From: Eledone cirrhosa
Lineage: Eukaryota
DNA length: 64,000 nucleotides
Direction of reading: 5' to 3'
NCBI GenBank assembly: GCA_964016885.1
Contig: OZ024745.1
Span: forward strand, 69,068,001-69,132,000
Notes under the pieces: generated by a model
What the model was told of the DNA's origin: nothing
Seen by the model: only the letters and a program-made list of their open reading frames with translations
Databases searched by the model: none
Program-made: the position numbers and the translations under genes
Shown here: one piece after another, positions 899-54,040 of the stretch
Position numbering within the stretch: the stretch's first letter is position 1
Layout: every line of letters starts with the position of its first letter

Positions 899-1107
899 TT
901 GCCTGAAGCGTGGAACATCGCCGATAAGATTTTTTGTAAATTTATATACGAAAAACAGAACAAATTGTTTAAAAAAACATATTATTTTGTAGATTAACCC
1001 CCAAGCTGAATTGTCAGCTGGGTGGTAATCCCATTTAGCGCCCCTTTAGGGACGAAAATTTAATTAAAATATTGTTTTAAAATATCAAATTTTGCCAACT
1101 ATAAAAC

Positions 1108-2991
1108 ATGAATAATACGAAAAGAACGCTGGAGAACGTCGACAGAGAAAAGAGAGAGAAAGAGGCAGGTTTTAAAGTTATATCTGCTTCTGGATGTCGC
1201 CATAGATACGACTGTCAACAAAGGAAAACAAATATTGCCAATTGAAGATTGTACAATTTCTACCGTTGAAGCAGAGAAAAATGAAAACACAGGAATTAAA
1301 CCCATTAACATACATACACATGAAAAAAACATCAACAACTCCACAGATACATCTACACATAAAGTTTCACCTCATCAAGGAACTGAGATTGCCAACACCG
1401 AGGCTAACAAGGATAACAACAACAACAACAACAACAACAACACCACACAAAATGTCTTTCGCTGAAACAGTGAACAAAAAACAAGATTTTATAAATCTTG
1501 ACATCTCCAATGCAAGAGATATGCTCCAGCAAGGGAGAACATGTGTAACTTTCGAAGAGAAGGATGGGTTTAGAATTAACTCACTCCTTGAAATAAAAGA
1601 AGACACAGTTTGGAGGACAGTGACCTTTAGGACTGTATCCAATACCACGAGAAAGCCGATATTTGTTAGTCAAGGAGATATAGAAGATACCTTGAAGAAA
1701 ATTCTAGCAAATATCGAATTTCTCCAACGAGGAAAACAGTATGGAAGTGTTTCCGCACTGTTTAAAAGCGAGGCACTTGCCCCAAAACATTCTGTGACAC
1801 CAATAGTCTCAAAAGCATTCACCCTTTTCCCTACATACATGGGAAAAAGGACACAAAAAATAAAAATAAAAAATATACCACCAAACATTAACATCTAGGG
1901 GATCTTGGCTGGCTTCGTAGAGCCAGAAACTGATATGATTCTTTCGATACGAAAGTCTATTCGACAAAGGTGGGCGGGTACGGATTTGGAAATTCTGTTT
2001 CAAATGAGGTTGGAGAGAATCTCCAAAATACCCGAAAGAGTCGTCATCGACGACAACAAGTTAAACATTTCGGTAGAAGGACGAACATTTCATTGCTTTC
2101 GCTGTGGTAGCACAGCACACCTAAAAGCCTCCTGTCCTTCAGAAACACACCACAACAACATCATTAAAAAACACTATTACCAACACCAACACCAAAACAA
2201 CCACCACCACCACAAGTACAATGACAGACGAAACGAGCAACCACACCAAAACAAACAGCCACTCAACGAACAACAACAGAAAAAAACAGAGACAACACCC
2301 CTGAAGAACATAGTCCCACCCCATCCCACTCCATCAAACACTACCACAAACACACACACCGAAACACCACCACCACACAACATACCCCTACCCCACACTC
2401 CGGACGATGATTATTCATCGACGGATGAAGCTGCTTCTTCTTTAATTGAAGAAGAGGGAGAGCCGCGGAAATCTAAAAAACAAAAAAAAGAGACACCACA
2501 AAACCCCCAAGACTCCAATCACCAACACCAACACACAACCACAGACACAAACAACAACACAAACTACACCACGTCAAACATACCCCTACCAGCCAAACCA
2601 ACACAAACACCACCCCAAACACAAGCACCCACCATAAAAAAAACTCCCGGACGAACAACTAACTAAAACAACACAACAAAAACACAAACAACAATGCGCA
2701 TACATCAACACAAACAACAAGAGTTTGATGGAGGTCATCTCCCAAAACCCCAAGGTGGAGAAGGAGGGCAAAACTTTCGTCAAGGCAGAATCGTCTCCAC
2801 ACCTTAAACTTATAAGGGTTTCTATGGAAACCTATAATGACCTGAAAAATAAATTTTCACAGGACGTGGGCAACCCCTGCTAGAAACCCATCAACCGCGC
2901 CCTGTTAAAATGTTTCCCCACCCCACCCAACACCCCATCCACCACCCAAATGGAGATTGAACAACCCGATCTCCAGGAAACGAAAAGGTAA
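1108..2991 (+). pseudogene. ORF1 (gag-like nucleic-acid-binding protein) of the Tx1-like LINE, disrupted
   Basis: ORF-track pieces 1242-1898 and 1905-2666 are in the same frame, split by TAG at 1896-1898. Zinc knuckle CFRCGSTAHLKASC (CX2CX4HX4C) and a Pro/Thr/His-rich tail. A shifted frame continues NNKSLMEVISQ...NPC*KP...QMEIEQPDLQETKR to TAA at 2989-2991. The start ATG at 1108 is tentative (alternative 1452). Confidence 0.8.
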
Positions 2992-3032
2992 GTGCACCTT
3001 TCGTCCTTTTTCTCCTACTCTTCTTCACCAAA

Positions 3033-6000
3033 ATGGCTAGTTTACGAGTTGGAAGCGTGAATGTGCGTGGCCTAGGGATGCCCTGGAAACAGGGCCAACT
3101 TTTAAACGACCTTAGGTCACACGGTATAGATGTGATAGCCATAATCGCGTCCAGGATCCACAACAGGCAGCAACTAACCCCCATCTTCGACGACTTTGAG
3201 ATCTACACATCTCTCTGTCAGCCAGGAGGTGGAGGGGGAGTGGCTGTCATGTTTGGGAAGAACCTGGACGTCGAAGTACAGCAAATACACTTGGACCCGG
3301 AGGGTAGACTGGTAGTCCTAGACGTGAACAGTATTGGAGGTGGAGCCTTCAGACTGGTGGCCGTTTATGTCCCGACCGGGCAATCGTAATCACAGCCAGA
3401 TTTCTTTAAGCGTCTAGAGTCTTTTCTGGGAACGTCTAGCTCCTTAATTTTAGAGGGGGACTGAATGGTATCCTAGATGCACGATGGGACTATGTTGGAG
3501 CATGTCCTAGTAGAAGGGGGTGCAACAGCCTCAAAACTTTAATCGGCCAATTCCAACTGGCCGATAGGTATCGACTGGATTTCCCGACTGCACCACAGTG
3601 GACGTGGGCAAACCGCAGCGGGACATCTAGATCGTATTTAGATAGGTTCTTTATTAGAGAAAGGGAGAAGGAGATGTTAAGCTGTCCACGAATGCACATC
3701 GTTGCCTATTCCGATCACAAATTAGTCGTCTGCTTAGTCAACCGTGATAGAACACATAGACAAGGACCCGGATACTGGAAGCTGAACGTGTCGTTGCCGG
3801 CACGTAAAGCTTACAGTGAACGGATAAGTAGACTTGTCAAGCAACAGTTAACGGGAGCCATCGTCAACAATAAATGGTGGTACTCTCTCAAGAAAGCAAT
3901 TAGAATAGAATCGATAGGGTTTAGCAGAGAGTTAGCTTTAGAGAAAAACAAAATAGAAAGAGAACTAGTAGCCAAGGTAGAGAAGGCACTTAGAAGTGGC
4001 AACGCGGCTAGAGTGTTAGCGTCGAGAACAGCACTAGACCAGTTCTTCGATGCGAAACACGAAGGCTGCGTGGGCAGAAGCAAAACACGTGCTCTAGGAA
4101 ACGAAGGAGCGAAAGCTGTCAGCTGAGCCCGAGTGGCGGAGGCGAAAAGTGGCAACAAGTCCACGATTCGGTCTTTGAAAGACCAAAACGAACGCGTGCT
4201 ACTTGACCCCAAGCAAATGTGCGCGGCCTTTCAGCAGCACTTTGCGCGACTGTTTGAGCAGAACGACGGTGAGCCGAACGGGGCAATGGACTTTAGTTCA
4301 TACCTCGACGGCCTGCCGCGTCTCTCGAACACAGACGCCGTGTTCTGCGAAAGACCGATCACGAACACTCAGATACGGGACACTCTGGGCCACTGCGGGA
4401 AACGCAAGTTACCCGGTCTAGATGGTCTACCCTATGAGTTTTACATAGGCATGCCCTCTCCTGCAATTGGCAGCAGAACCGGAGAATTTCCAGTTCTGCA
4501 GGCAAGGGCGTATTAACGCTGATCAGGAAAGACGAGAACAAGGGGGACGAGAACAAGGGGGACGAAATTAACAACTTCAGGTCCATTACTCTGCTCAACA
4601 CAGAGTTAAAGATTTTGGCCAAGGTGCTAGCGACGAGGTTGTTGGCACTTGTCGTCGAGAACCTGGTAGGGAAAGCGCAAACGTGTGCAATCCCGACCAG
4701 GTCCTTACACGACAACCTCCACCTCATGCGATACATCATAGAGAGGGTGGGTAGTAAACCCGGCTTCGGTGGGGCTCTGATCAATTTGGATCAGTCTAAG
4801 GCATTCGATAGGGTCGACCATCGATACTTGGAAGCGGTTCTCAAGGCGGCCGGTTTCCGTCCCGTTTTCAGATGCTGGATCGAGGCGATGCACACCAGCA
4901 TCTGCTCGAGGGTCAAGGTGAACGGCTACCTGCCGGAGCCGTTCGCAATCACGCGTTCCATTCGCGGTGCCCTCTCTCCTCCATTCTGTATGTATTGACT
5001 CTAGAGCCACTACTGCGGAAATTGGAGCTGTTGCAGGGCATCCCTCTAGAAGCAGGACTGCGCAAAGCGGCATCGGCTTATGCCGACGACGTAACGGTAA
5101 TGGTGTCGAGCACCTCGGAAATCGGGGTGATCGGCAACTTACTGAAAGAATACGAAACGCTGACGGTAGCTAAACTAAAGCGGTACAAGTCTGTCGGTTT
5201 GCAACTCGGTACGTGGAGAGGCAAACCGATGACGTCCGACAGCTTCGTTGAACGCTGGACGGACGGATCGGTGAAATTGCTCGGGGTCTGGTTCGGTCCA
5301 GACCTCCAGGTGGAGAAAAACTGGAATGAGGTCACGGCCAAGGTGTTTGCACTCACCCAGAAGTGGGAAGAGTGCAAACTGTCCTTGAAAGGTCGAGCGG
5401 AGGTGGCGAACACTTTAATAGCGTCCGTCATCTACTACCGCTTGACTGTCGTGCCTTGTTCCCGTGAACAGCTCGCCAAGATGGAACGCATGCTCTTCCC
5501 ATTTCTGTGGAAGAAGCAGGCTCTGCTGGTGAGGAGATCCGTCTGCTGTCAGCACCCTTCCAACGGAGGGCTGGGAATGCCGTGGCTGATGATGCGCAAA
5601 CATGCGGTGAGGCTGCGGCATCTCTAGGTATTCCTCACCGACCCCCCCCCCCCAACCGGTGTGGGCACCGTTTGTGAGACAGGCTTTCCCACAGCTCGTC
5701 TCGCTGACGGAGCTGCAGTCCTGGGTGAAGAAAAGACCGAACACGATGGGCGCCTGGCACATTGAATGCGCTCAGGCGCTCACAGTCCTCTGGCAAGCGG
5801 GCGCAGCAATCAGTGGAGACTCCACTTCGACATTCTATAGAGGGATTGTACGTTACAAGGGCGACGACGTGCTCGGAGAGACTCTGGGCGTCGAAGACGA
5901 TGAGCTCACCAGTCTGTTTGGTAGGACTTTCCGCCCGGGACCTATGGACAACTTCCAGAGGTCCCTGGCCTGGCAGTGCTACCGAGGAGCTCTACCGGTT

Positions 6001-6471
6001 CGTGACAAGATCTACAGGCACGGACGCCCCGGCAGGGATGCTTCCAAGAGGACGTGTCCAAGATGTGCGAAGGACATTGAAACAGTACTGCACGTAATTG
6101 TACACTGCCCGGGCGTAACCGACATGTGGAACTATGCAGAACAACTGCTGTCGCGTATGGAACAAATCCAGTTGACTGCTGAGTGCATAGTAAGGATCAA
6201 ACCACCAGCCTCTTTCAAAAACGACAGAGAGGCGGTTTTCCACTGTACGGTGGCTATGGTGAAATAAATTATATGGTGGACGAGATTGAGAGGACTGAGG
6301 ACAAATGCCTTTCTCTCCGGACAACAATTGGTTCCCTTCTTTAAGTATCACTTTAGAAGGAGAATGAGAGTGGAGAGAGAAGCACTGCACCCCAGTAAAT
6401 TTACTGAAAGGTGGGTGAATGAAGCGAAAATGGTCCTAGTGATTGGTCCTTCTCTGTTTATAAGCCTGTAG
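3033..6471 (+). pseudogene. ORF2 (APE endonuclease + reverse transcriptase + zinc finger) of the Tx1-like LINE, disrupted
   Basis: APE motifs GSVNVRGL, RLVAVYVP, SYLDRF, SDHK and GPGYWKLN. RT motifs PGLDGLPYEFY, NFRSITLLNTELKILAKVLA, LDQSKAFDRVDH, CPLSSILY, AYADDV and KLLGVWF. C-terminal CPRC..ETVLHVIVHC. Several stops (3387, 4124, 5625, 6265) and frameshifts; in-frame 15-bp duplication at 4531-4560. Confidence 0.93.
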
Positions 6472-6707
6472 GTTGAAGAAGAGAGCAAACGGAAGAAAGG
6501 AGCACTTGTACAAGACGCTCCTGGAGTTGAGGGTTGTTCTATCGACGGGGTATTAAACAACCCATTTGTGGCGCTTCTCCCCTATTGAGGATTTCGATTG
6601 TTGTAATTGTTTGTTTTTATATTTTTTACACGACTGTATGTAAAATCCCCGGCATGTCTTTGTATTGTCCTCTTTTCTTGTGCGCCCTTGTGGCAAATAA
6701 ATAAATA

Positions 6708-6940
<233 letters not shown>

Positions 6941-48576: not shown

Positions 48577-51058
48577 ACAACATGTGACTGTAAGATCATT
48601 ATCTACATCAACGTATCACTCAAGGCTAGCAGTTTGAAATTGTGGTATACATCAGCAGCTCGGCTTGTATAGTTGGGGTCTATATTCTAAGGGGGCTCTT
48701 TTATATTAGTTGTCGGGGTCAGGGATTGAAGGTTAAAAATTAGATAATATATTATTTACGCATTAACAGTAAACTAAAAGACTTGGGGTCCCGTAGAAGC
48801 ACCTTAAAAAATCCCTCAATAAGTGCATAAGCTTACAGGTTCCAATAAACCTACTAAACTAAAAGAAATTAAGAGGCTAATAAAATAAAAAATAAAAATA
48901 TAAAGTTTCCCTAAAAATATATAAAGTTTCCTATGAAATTCCTACGAGAGAAAAAAGTTTTTTTCCGAAAGAAAAAAACTTTATTCCCCCGAGATCACGT
49001 TTACAAATTTCAGAAAATTTACGAAGTTTTGATATTCCCGACTAAGTTGAAAGAAACTAATCAATTAAAGGTTAATTCAAAGAGCCTTCTATAGTTCTCT
49101 CAGAAAAGGCCCCTTTAATATTTTTAATAGGAACCTCCTCCGAGAGACCCTTCGAAGAATTAAACTTTTAGAGAGCCTTTAAGGATATATATAAACACGA
49201 ATTGAGGAAAACTATACATTAAAAGTTAAAAATTACGGTATTTGGGATATCCGAGGAATTTTCAAAGGGCTGCCTCAGCAGATACAACTTAGGCATAATA
49301 GATACAATAATTTAAGTAATTTAAGTAATTTAATTAATTTAATTAGGGAGCAATTCAAAGAGTTTATCAAGTTGGGCAAGATTAAAGAGAGTGGTAAATA
49401 AGAAAATACATAAGCAAAAAGACAATAATTATAAAATGTATTTTTAAGAAGGTATAAGGTAGCTTCAGTAATCTAACAATGTATTATCACAAAAAATTAT
49501 TATAAAATTATTGATACAGGATTAACAAAGACATAATAATATATATTCCTGCCTAATTAACAAGTAACCAAAACACTATTAACAGTCAGGCAAAATTAGC
49601 TCAGGGATATCCCGCGCTCGGATACTTTACACACATACAGCAACACATAGGATTAGCACATACACAATGGTATATTCCTGCCTAATTAACAAACAATCGA
49701 TTAACAATTGATGGTCAAGAAAATGTACTCAGGGATATCCCGCGCACGGATATTTACATACATACAACAGGATGAACAGTACTGGTGACCGTGTGGGCGC
49801 GATATCCATTATGCGTATGTAGTCATCTGCATAGCTCCAGGCACAGCTGGTGTTGTTTAAAAGTTCATAGTTCACGGATCAACTGGGATTCACTATCAGC
49901 TGCGTGGACTCTCTGGGAGATGTACCTGTGGTTCCAATAGCTAGTGGTTGCTGGGTGTGGTCCTTTCGATCTTTTAGTTTCAGGGGTTGCACGCTTTCGG
50001 CCGGTTCTAAGTCCAAGGTCTCGCTACATAGGATGTATTGGTCTACATGCCATATTGGTAAAAAAACCAGTGTGGATTTGACTGGGGTGGTATATTACGA
50101 ACTCCAAGCCCACACGCGACTGGTCAAAAGCGAAGGGCTGTCCCCTCTTTGTTTGCTGTATGGGTCGGTTCCAGCTTAGATGGTGGTCGTGTTATCCATA
50201 TTCCGTCAGCCCTGTATATTCAAGACAGATCAGGGTATATATTTGCGGGTACGGTCCGGCGTCTACGTTATCCAGAGGGTCTCACTTGTGGTACTTTCAA
50301 GTTCGCATGTCATCTCCCGGTTAAAACTGCGCATGCCTCGGTGAATCTCATGCATGGAATCTTAGGGTATCATATTACACGGGGTGACAAGCAGAAAATA
50401 TACATTCTATGCTATCGCGCACGCGCTGGCCTGTGGCTACGACCATGTCCAGTCTCGGGTAGTAGCAGACAGTAGGTAGACCAGCCTGACACACTCCTGT
50501 TCAAGGGGCACAACCCCTAACTTATCGAGTGGTCAGACTTCAAGGGAGTCAACTCTCCAAGCCCATAAAGCCGACTGTGGTAAAATACAAACAAATCCTA
50601 TTAGTAAAGAACTAATCACTGATAATAAAGAACTAACTCAAAAGAATGGGGAGGAGCATCTATTTGGGCGGGGGTTTACTAAAGGAGGGGTGGGGGGGGG
50701 GGCAGGGGGTGAGTGGTTATAGGCAGGGAGCGGCCGCCATACTGGGTGTTTTGTTACTGTTTCCCTGGGTATGTTCTCGAGTTTGTTGACATACATCTCC
50801 GACGGCACCTTCCCATATTAGTCTACGTGGGTCCAGGCACTCACAATGTCCTACATCGCAGGCATCAGCTGCCCCCAGGGTGCCCAGCAACAATGTTGCC
50901 ACCAATCCCAGGTTGGCAAGTGGGACACAGGGTCGTCTGTTCCTCACCAGAGTCCCCATCGCCAATCGGGGAGCCGAGGCATCCATGCGGCCGGGGTTAC
51001 TAAAGAGCACCCTGTTCGCTAGCGGGGCTGCCAAGTGCAGGACTGGGTGGTGTCAGGG

Positions 51059-53520
51059 CTATGTGTCTGGTCTGAAGAAAAAGAAAGAGCTAAGTATAGT
51101 ATGGGGGCATGACGAGAAGATTTCTGATCTCCTGTTGAGCAAGTTGAGTCCTGAGAATACTATGGCATGAGATTCAGATAGGCACAGGCTACAAAACCTG
51201 CTCAACGAGCTATATGGAGGAGCTTTAGTAAGGCATCTCCAGCTTAGTGTGTAGGGGGTTTTTGTTTGTTTTAAGCTATGTATATGGCCCGCTAACGACG
51301 TGGTATTTTTAAGCTTCTCATATCGGAAGCTATGCTGGTGGGCGTTGAACCTCGTCTTGAACTCGTTACCGGTTGATCCAACATACGTCTTAGTATACGT
51401 GCCTGTGGTTACGTTACAAGCATATACCACGTTCCTAATAAGGCAGTGTCCAGCTAGTGGGCATTTGTCCTTCCTTCTGCAATTACACTTTTTAGTAGGG
51501 TCATGCTCCTCAATCAGGGGTGCATGTCCCTCCAAGCAGCCGCGGGGCTGCCTAGTGGGACCGGTTCTATTGCCTATTATCCCCCTGGGTCTTTCACTCA
51601 GTGGGTTGGTCCCGTGTTGTCGTGTGTACTGGCGTGGTTCACTATTTCGGATGGCCTTAAGTCCCTCTTTAATCTTACTCTTATTGGTCTTAGCTAGGTG
51701 TGAGGCCAGATTAGGGGTTGTAGAGTACGATAGCTTGGCAGTATTCTTATTGATAACACTACCGTACCTACTACCCCGGGGGAAGTTCTTATCTATTAAA
51801 GAGAAAAAAGATTTGGGGAGGTCTGTAGTAACATTAGAGTTGAAGGGCGGGTTAAAGAAGGTACTATCACGTCTTCTATTCCTTCCACTGCGTTTCCTAC
51901 CCCCTATGCTGCTTACCCTCTCTTCGTCTATATTATTACGGGTTCTACCAGGTGTGGTTGCTGGGCTCCCAGTGGTACGTGCGTTGGTCTCGAGTCTCCT
52001 AGGCCTCTGTCCCCCGTTTTCACTGTTGGACTTGCTCGGGGCGGCATAGCGCTTACCAGGCGTGTGGGCCCTATCCGTGTCTGCGTTGCGAGTGTTGTTG
52101 TTCTTATCTAACTTCCTATTGTCCCTATTCGTCTTTCTAGCTCTCCTTCCAACTCCCATGGACATATTATGCGTGATTACAGTGCTGGGTTGGGGTGGTG
52201 GGGTGGTGCCGCCTGTCTCAACATAATGGCGTTTATCTTTGTGCCCTGACCCAGCTAGCGCCTTATTGTAATATTCCGCGTTCGCTTCAAATGCGGTCAC
52301 GCTGCTAGATAGTCCGCTAATCCTACTAGATACTCCTTTAACTATTGCTTTGAGGACTGAGCCTGGGTGGTTGGAGTTGGCATTGACGTATGTCAGCCTT
52401 TCGTTAGGTTTATGGTACGGTGCATATTCTAACTTATCTAGGTCTAGTGTGGCATCTAGAAAGTTGACTACCTTACTATTTCTATCTATAGTTATTGATA
52501 GGTTAAAATTCTTGAAGAATTTATAAAGGTCCTTTCTAGTTCTTTCTAGGTTGTGCCGTTTAAAGTCCACAGTAAGCAATGCGTCGTCACGGTATAGCCC
52601 ACCTCTGAGGTGTGGGAGCTGCTCGTTGAGCTCCTTGAGCAAGTCCAATCCGACGAGGTCTGTCACCTGCGCTGAGTCGCTAGACCCCATAGTGATGTCG
52701 AAATTGTTACGAGTGTTCTTGCGCGTCCACAATTCATCCTCAAATGTGATAATTGTTTTACGAGCGGCAAGGACTATGTCAATCTGGGATCTAGCGAGTC
52801 CGCCCGTCCGCATTGCCATCATGAGCGCCTTATTTAGTAGTATGGGGGATATAGACGTATAGTAGGAGTCTATATCGAACTGGATGAAGCGTAGTGATTT
52901 GTGGTTGCTAATGCTTGAGAACCACTTTATCACTTCTGCAGTGTTTCCCCATAGGTCCAGGCTAATCCTGTCTTTAACTTTCGGTATGACTTCATCTAGT
53001 ATTTTTTTACTTATAATCCCTATGTCAGATTTAGAGGGGCTAATGAGCCTGACAGAGGGGCTACTTGCAAAGTCCTCCTTATGATCTTTCAATGTGAACC
53101 TTGGTTGTCGGGGGGTATAAGGTTGTGTGCATTTCTCTAATCCTAGCTTCGTTACTATCACTTTAGCCTCCCTGTTAATCTCGTCTAGGTTGGCTACAGT
53201 AGTTTTTTTAATAGTTTTTATGTAGCTCAATGTATATGAAACCGCGGTATTCTTCATAACTCAGGTTGTACATATTCCTAGTCTTGTCCGAGGGTACGAG
53301 TATACACTTTCTGTCCTTAAAAGATTTAACTAGTGATTCTGATTTTGTTTGGAAGCCGCTACGCTTACTGTTTTTCCTTTTATATCAAATAGACCGGACG
53401 AGAGATAATAGGTCACTCTCAAATTTATCGAGTAGAGGGTTATGGGGCGGGCTCCTAAATGTCCTAAATCCATACTTATTTCTGCTCCTAAATGTCCTAA
53501 ATCCATACTTATTTCTGCTC
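51059..53520 (-). pseudogene. PLE polyprotein: reverse transcriptase + GIY-YIG endonuclease, lightly disabled
   Basis: The 732-aa track ORF has RT motifs FIQFDIDSYYTSI, DITMGSSDSAQVTDLVG, GGLYRDD, VNFLDATLDL, SNHP and FFNPPF; linker CNCRRKDKCPLAGHC; and EN motifs NVVY..YVGST..FKTRFNAH..CSLCLSE..LLNRRSE..CPH. The true N-terminus (KYGFRTFRSPPHNPLLDKFESDLLSLVRSI*YKR..VPSDKTRNMY) lies in another frame upstream, joined by a +1 frameshift near 53205-53212, with one TGA at ~53383. Confidence 0.92.
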
Positions 53521-53614
53521 TGCGTATACGCATAGAGCTTAACTAGCTACCATCACATATTTGGTAGGTCAGACGTGATCATCGCGATTCACATACGACC
53601 TACCATACATCTTA

Positions 53615-53679
<65 letters not shown>

Positions 53680-53920
53680 GTGTGTGGGTGTCTATGGGTG
53701 TGTACGTGTGTAGGTGGGTGCGTGTGTAGGTGGATGTGTGTGGATGCGTGTGGATGTGTGCGTGTGGGTTTGTGTGGGTGAGTGCGGGTGTGGATGTGTG
53801 CGTGTGGGTGTGGGTATATCTACATGTATTTATGCGTTCAAGAACAAACTGTCTTATGCATAGTAAATATCGTTAATGATTAAGTACTAATAAATTAGAA
53901 AAAGGTATACAGGTTCCACC

Positions 53921-53969
<49 letters not shown>

Positions 53970-54040
53970 GCGTGAATTTTTACCGAACGCTACTTCTTTA
54001 GACATAAAATGTGAACATATATATATATTTATTTATATTA

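Follow-up and report, generated by a model that had tools for sequence, protein, structure and literature searches.

A conserved splice-donor sequence on the ORF1 stop codon of an Eledone cirrhosa LINE family lies within a predicted long-range helix around ORF2

The DNA of interest is a 64,000-nucleotide stretch of the Eledone cirrhosa genome (GenBank assembly GCA_964016885.1, contig OZ024745.1, forward-strand positions 69,068,001–69,132,000; hereafter the window). At approximately 900–6705 on the plus strand it carries a full-length, disabled long interspersed nuclear element (LINE) of the L1/Tx1 type, whose ends agree with many of the 60 genomic copies that were fetched. We refer to its family as family A, and all features of the element given below are on the plus strand. 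The element consists of open reading frame 1 (ORF1; 1190–2991 by reading-frame analysis, start approximate) and ORF2 (3033–6471; start codon 3033–3035, stop codon 6469–6471), which encodes an endonuclease, a reverse transcriptase (RT) and a zinc finger. Both frames are broken in the window copy, ORF1 by stop codons and frameshifts. The original prediction for this locus had recognized the copy as disabled, and had proposed that in the family the whole of ORF2 forms an intron bounded by the two stop codons.

The first site of interest sits on the ORF1 stop. As originally predicted, a consensus 5' splice donor, AAG|GTAAGT (2985–2993, GT at 2988–2989), overlaps the terminal AGG TAA of ORF1 (2986–2991). 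It is the sole such site in the window copy, and the frame ending in AGG TAA is open as ORF1 in 24 of 27 family-A copies. Given a TAA or TGA stop, the remaining six consensus positions would be matched by chance about once in 2000 (an estimate assuming uniform base frequencies). Within family A, both the donor and the acceptor-like site at the ORF2 stop are conserved, an agreement that carries little weight at 95% identity. Lineages B, C, D, E and F, gathered from the same genome, extend the comparison. An intact donor is carried by 27 of 29 copies in A and again in B, by 23 of 29 in C and by 19 of 25 in E; it is perfect in both D copies and in three of six F copies, while in three copies (L278, L316 and L323) the stop is TAG and the donor weaker. 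The donor is conserved over six lineages, down to about 50–60% identity at the ORF2 ends. Between lineages, the last 60 bases of ORF1 are 43–77% identical (43–48% for E against the others), and the spacer between donor and ORF2 40–70%. Subfamilies differ in the donor mainly at +3 (A/G), a position at which the metazoan donor consensus itself has A or G, and the AGG codon and the non-coding positions +5 and +6 are conserved even across the lineages with 43–48% ORF1-end identity. At the level of sequence, the donor is constrained beyond ORF1 coding; it and the TAG-G at the ORF2 stop are features of the family rather than quirks of the window copy.

What the original prediction missed is that both candidate splice sites lie in one predicted helix. 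In this long-range helix (hereafter the clamp), the donor, the pyrimidine-rich spacer and the ORF2 start codon (5' strand, 2988–3036) are predicted to pair with a 3' strand (6464–6509, with an anti-donor at 6502–6509) that comprises the ORF2 stop and the initial 40 bases of the 3' untranslated region (3'UTR). The predicted helix has about 35–45 pairs with bulges; the donor, the initiation codon of ORF2 and the AG of its stop codon all fall inside it. Both strands emerge from duplex folding and from whole-region minimum free energy (MFE) folding, and the 5' strand from shuffle tests besides. The window-copy duplex is predicted at -36.5 kcal/mol, versus -21.1 ± 3.4 for dinucleotide shuffles. Of 23 elements, 19 have a spacer/3'UTR-start duplex whose stability is equalled by at most 2 of 200 dinucleotide shuffles; likewise in 19 of 23, the best-pairing window of the entire ORF2–3'UTR stretch is no more than 13 bases from the ORF2 stop. 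The shuffle test is also passed by 3/3 D-type and 3/4 F elements. Of a set of 60 regions searched for matching 5' and 3' ends, about half yielded no pair, and L235, L250 and L267, which have no readable stop, were left out. When MFE folding was applied to the whole region (3.7–3.8 kb), the donor was paired to the anti-donor in both copies folded.

Comparison between lineages points in the same direction. The spacer pairs best with the 3' end of its own lineage in five of six rows of the cognate/cross pairing comparison; L095, L222 and L230, which have the 3' end of another lineage, were left out of both matrices, and L278, L316 and L323 were also omitted from the second. Strand lengths covary (27–45 and 23–35 bases; rho 0.82 over nine related elements). 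Double changes are seen at donor +3 (A/G with T/C in the anti-donor) and between spacer C/T and G/A at +1 after the ORF2 stop (A in E and F). Separately, L222, L229, L230 and L232 each combine the 5' half of one subfamily with the 3' end of another around an ORF2 of normal length, and are likely recombinant lineages. A neighbouring copy (L008:1960-2190) is cut at its 5' side just before the ORF2 start codon, at the predicted helix end.

The second candidate splice site, the acceptor-like sequence at the ORF2 stop (6448–6472; ORF2 ends in CTG TAG at 6469–6471, followed by G), is present as described, with moderate strength and in some lineages only. Scored with a crude matrix of general acceptor frequencies, it reaches 2.7 bits in the window copy (rank 4 of 279 AGs), 2.7–3.6 bits in A and C (rank 2–4 of 256–279 AGs), 0.4 in B and -1.1 to 3.6 in the D types. 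A second AG lies 7 bases upstream in A, including the window copy, and in C, and codon positions that are free to vary before the AG show no shift to pyrimidines. TAG ends ORF2 in 6 of 10 lineage-E ends and in 24 of 33 lineage-F ends, and every one of these scores below zero as an acceptor; a 3'UTR AG of at least 3.5 bits occurs in 1 of the 33 F ends. Of the two splice sites, the donor is conserved in six lineages; conservation of the acceptor appears, on this crude matrix, to break down in E and F, where the donor is conserved and the acceptor at the ORF2 stop is poor or absent. Nine of ten E ends (L258, L260, L265, L272, L274 and others) carry a strong acceptor-like site, consisting of a long T run and CAG, 158–183 bases past the ORF2 stop; A, C and D lack this site, as do nearly all F ends. 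The idea of acceptor turnover—every lineage having a good acceptor either at the stop or in the 3'UTR—was hinted at by lineages A–E and is ruled out by F. In the predicted helix, the spacer pairs with both the G of TAG and the base after it, and this following base changes together with its partner in E and F; the acceptor bases thus appear to be conserved at least partly for pairing.

Joining 2987 to 6472 does, as predicted, extend ORF1 in frame by 27 codons, to a stop at 6554–6556; an open run of that length has an estimated chance of about 1 in 4. The tail is 27 codons long in 26 of 30 A copies and mostly 27 in B, where its second half is read in another frame. It spans 18–49 codons in C, about 41–74 in D, and zero (an immediate stop) in L230 and L278. 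Frame and length both shift between lineages, contrary to the conservation that a coding extension of ORF1 would show. On the evidence of predicted folds, the tail bases are structured 3'UTR, not a coding exon. Two hairpins are predicted here: (i) hairpin 1 (6499–6521), a local alternative to the clamp with 86% of cells paired and two pairs with double changes, and (ii) hairpin 2 (6531–6563), which holds the stop of the proposed tail and has three pairs with double changes. Over the hairpins, 82% of cells are paired, versus 74% in shuffles and 30–51% in slid controls. Cells paired and covariation score beat 500/500 shuffles and all slid controls, while two pair-count measures, of five measures in all, fell short of the shuffles (410/500 and 451/500). 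Hairpin 1 is weak in family A, reaches 7–9 pairs in lineages B, C and D, and fails to fit E. In L216 and other B copies, the 3' arm of hairpin 1 repeats the nine bases at donor +5 to +13 exactly, which gives the 5' arm two equal partners; a two-state switch between hairpin 1 and the donor region is possible in B on this model.

HAL1 elements are ORF1-only derivatives of L1, and a HAL1-like element is the expected product of copying the proposed spliced RNA; none was found from this donor. The exact 2987/6472 junction word has no match in the genome, while the unspliced controls return 473 exact donor words and 338 exact acceptor words. After the 17 exon-side bases common to A, B and C1, an intact donor follows in 732 cases, and bases other than the donor's at +3 and +5 in five. 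All five carry small deletions or substitutions and read through into ORF2, and none is spliced; this search detects junctions unlike the donor at +3 and +5, which include the proposed one and about half of arbitrary ones. Lineage E has 62 exon-side matches, and in all of them the sequence goes on into the donor or a variant one base away from it; no spliced copy and no junction to the E-type 3'UTR acceptor-like site is among them. The 60 fetched copies all continue into ORF2, but were picked by the unspliced donor word and are blind to spliced copies. In contigs of unrecorded kind from one study (runs X1–X4), the 2987–6472 join is at none of the 15 joints shown of about 450, and at 0 of 7 in X4; we do not count this as evidence. 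A mini-intron fusing ORF1 to ORF2 was rejected on two grounds: an in-frame AG near the ORF2 start is not common to all family-A copies, and processed copies, still encoding ORF2, would show among the non-donor continuations, where none was seen.

The genome does not support the idea in its original form, an intron with a coding tail: in the searches run, ORF2-less processed copies lacking 2988–6471 number zero against 732 + 62 unspliced matches. HAL1-like offspring from this donor are excluded at the depth searched. Splicing itself is not, since human spliced L1 copies keep ORF2 and L1 proteins prefer their own RNA in cis, according to the human L1 study (PMC5860796). With such a cis-preference, a spliced RNA could leave no trace in the genome.

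How, then, are the donor and the clamp to be read? The donor is likely best understood as a U1 site, because it is conserved this exactly even where it is unpaired; U1 binding is judged here from the donor consensus. A precedent exists in EVD, a Ty1/copia element of Arabidopsis with a shGAG RNA, in which U1 at the donor both permits splicing and suppresses early termination of the full-length RNA (PMC5580714). Our preferred reading, held tentatively and with somewhat less than even confidence, is that the U1 site is open during ORF2 transcription and is then clamped shut, which keeps the genomic RNA unspliced. The donor would be open to U1 over the 3.4 kb of ORF2 transcription and, by analogy with EVD, U1 would protect the RNA from early cleavage and polyadenylation. 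The anti-donor would emerge about 40 bases past the ORF2 stop, with U1 released once the 3'UTR appears, and the helix would then seal off the AG as well as the donor and the ORF2 start. A local hairpin would compete for the anti-donor bases in B, C and D. The outcome would be unspliced, full-length RNA for copying, the sole form seen copied in the genomic searches run. Beside it, a spliced RNA may exist as a minor product. Lineages E and F, which keep donor and clamp without a good acceptor at the stop, fit this sequence of events.

Several points weigh against it. Firstly, U1 binding, the helix and early polyadenylation are all deduced from sequence and folding, and a cryptic poly(A) site in ORF2 that needs suppression is presumed. 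Secondly, the case for the clamp is uneven: four of the 23 elements do not pass the shuffle test; none of the 200 shuffles matched the stability of one non-cognate pair (L095) either; cognate and cross pairing differ by no more than 1 kcal/mol for A/B, D/E and E/F; and the first four donor bases are unpaired in some C and D copies. Pyrimidine-rich and purine-rich strands pair readily by composition, and the covariation is based on few events in related lineages. Thirdly, three observations are compatible with real splicing: the TAG at the ORF2 stop in all lineages (including the E and F fractions given above), the high rank of the acceptor in A and C, and the strong E site in the 3'UTR.

These last observations, together with the perfect donor and the Ty1/copia precedent (PMC5580714), also favour regulated splicing, an amended form of the original prediction and a possible explanation that we nevertheless consider doubtful. 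Here the donor would be joined in some transcripts to the AG at the ORF2 stop (in E, to the 3'UTR AG), giving an ORF1-only messenger RNA (mRNA); the clamp would set the ratio, the tail would be a mere route to the next stop, and the spliced RNA would go uncopied because the ORF2 protein acts in cis, as the cis-preference of L1 proteins allows (PMC5860796). Against it stand the absence of processed copies in the searches above, the lack of a pyrimidine shift, the competing upstream AG in A and C, and a TAG-G that pairing accounts for. Lineage F keeps donor and clamp, yet all 24 of its TAG ends score below zero and its 3'UTRs offer a good AG once in 33 ends. Unlike copia, moreover, ORF1 has a stop of its own and requires no splice. 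The two ideas can be combined in a co-transcriptional switch, a rather unlikely version in our estimate: U1 would hold the donor for 3.4 kb, and at the ORF2 stop the spliceosome would race the 3'UTR anti-donor. If splicing won, an ORF1-only mRNA would result; if the clamp won, the helix would cover both splice sites and the ORF2 start, and mark the RNA as a genome for copying.

An improbable alternative is that the helix serves translation or ribonucleoprotein assembly, with the ORF2 start buried, the ORF2 stop and 3'UTR adjacent, and the donor-like word a by-product; such a helix might limit reinitiation or aid cis-binding, and would be compatible with a donor role. That the predicted helix takes in both stop codons and the start codon of ORF2 suits this idea. 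Pairing alone, on the other hand, needs no donor consensus: elsewhere in the spacer, positions vary freely in step with their partners, but the donor differs mainly at +3 and is conserved where unpaired. Chance with shared descent, in which the apparent splice sites and helix stem from base composition and an Arg-stop ending, is very improbable: stop codons do supply three donor bases, the strands are composition-biased, the lineages are related, and acceptor and tail look incidental, but the conserved AGG, +5 and +6 in lineages so diverged at the ORF1 end, the shuffles, the window scans and the length covariation all speak against it.

Returning to the preferred reading of a U1 site later clamped shut, its interest lies in an open question: how the RNA of a two-gene LINE stays whole, escaping splicing and early polyadenylation, and yields much more of the ORF1 protein than of the ORF2 protein. 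Together, the conserved donor and a co-evolving helix looping out the whole of ORF2 would be a compact, mutable unit for testing that question. Among literature titles and abstract openings, a coverage with most subscription papers outside it, no such helix or donor in a LINE was found, and as far as searched the conserved donor with its co-evolving clamp around ORF2 is new. Also new here are the genome-wide null for the junction, with denominators, the failure of tail and acceptor in distant lineages, and the helix predicted in six lineages.

Three known systems come closest. EVD likewise has a conserved donor at the end of its structural gene, but it is a long terminal repeat element with one ORF and a demonstrated splice that is needed for the Gag stop (PMC5580714); the LINE described here has its own ORF1 stop and a predicted 3'UTR anti-donor, and its splicing is only proposed. 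Human L1 is a LINE with splice sites whose spliced RNAs can be read as processed genomic copies, the SpIREs, found for 131 of 6,609 full-length L1s (~2%); its introns lie in the 5'UTR and ORF1 with ORF2 retained, and the authors call the products dead ends (PMC5860796). Here, in contrast, the donor is conserved and the genome searches returned no processed copy. Kibi and Koshi, Tx1-clade non-LTR retrotransposons that target microsatellites, share two ORFs, an endonuclease–RT–zinc finger ORF2 and microsatellite insertion with our family, and differ in the target, which is (TC)n or (TTC)n for them and (TATC)n here (PMC4494074). The covered part of that report makes no mention of a donor or long-range helix.

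The element itself is an ordinary member of a known group, and the window copy is a decayed copy of a young L1/Tx1-type family. ORF1 is a 627-codon open frame in copies L079 and L103 and gave no match in the Pfam scan of an intact natural copy; it contains one CCHC knuckle (near 2094–2135), and so provides the separate upstream ORF with a nucleic-acid-binding motif that is expected of the group. ORF2 is open over 1148 amino acids in 5 of the 60 fetched copies and has the expected N-terminal apurinic/apyrimidinic (AP)-type endonuclease, RT and C-terminal zinc finger: Pfam matches in the intact natural copy L080 are Exo_endo_phos (3e-14), RVT_1 (1e-26) and zf-RVT (8e-5, below its cut-off). The nearest solved structure is human LINE-1 ORF2p (E 2e-55), with R2 far behind. 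The best named protein match of the family is from Argonauta, other matches being mostly unnamed, and L1-Tx1 families are given as recently active in Octopus vulgaris (PMC13282606).

The element is flanked by (TATC)n microsatellites at 826–897 on the 5' side, the likely target according to family flank counts, and at 6706–6750 on the 3' side. At least two TATC units occur within 30 bases at 37 of 39 full 5' ends, versus 32 of 1926 background 30-mers, and 47 of 52 family 3' ends lie in TATC repeats. These flanks exceed the Tx1 target-preference threshold of more than 20% of flanks of one sequence type (PMC4494074), the placement in the Tx1 clade being provisional. The original prediction placed the tail ahead of a poly(A) signal: the AATAAA word is there (6696–6701), but a poly(A) tail is found at 0 of 52 family 3' ends, and the element stops at this word and gives way to the microsatellite. 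The T-rich distal 3'UTR of family A (window 6590-6700) runs for about 110 bases without an AG before AATAAA.

Elsewhere, a GC-rich segment of the window (50001-54000; 0.42-0.49) has no match to the LINE ORF2 or DNA. One family-A copy is split by an unrelated frame of 863 codons (L061:3949-6540), RT-like and with a nuclease-like part at its C terminus, which may be Penelope-like. In the flanks of L065–L120, copies of several lineages are stacked head to tail within the same (TATC)n runs. Four young copies (L067, L068, L069 and L071) lie outside TATC repeats, three of them in one other common flank sequence.

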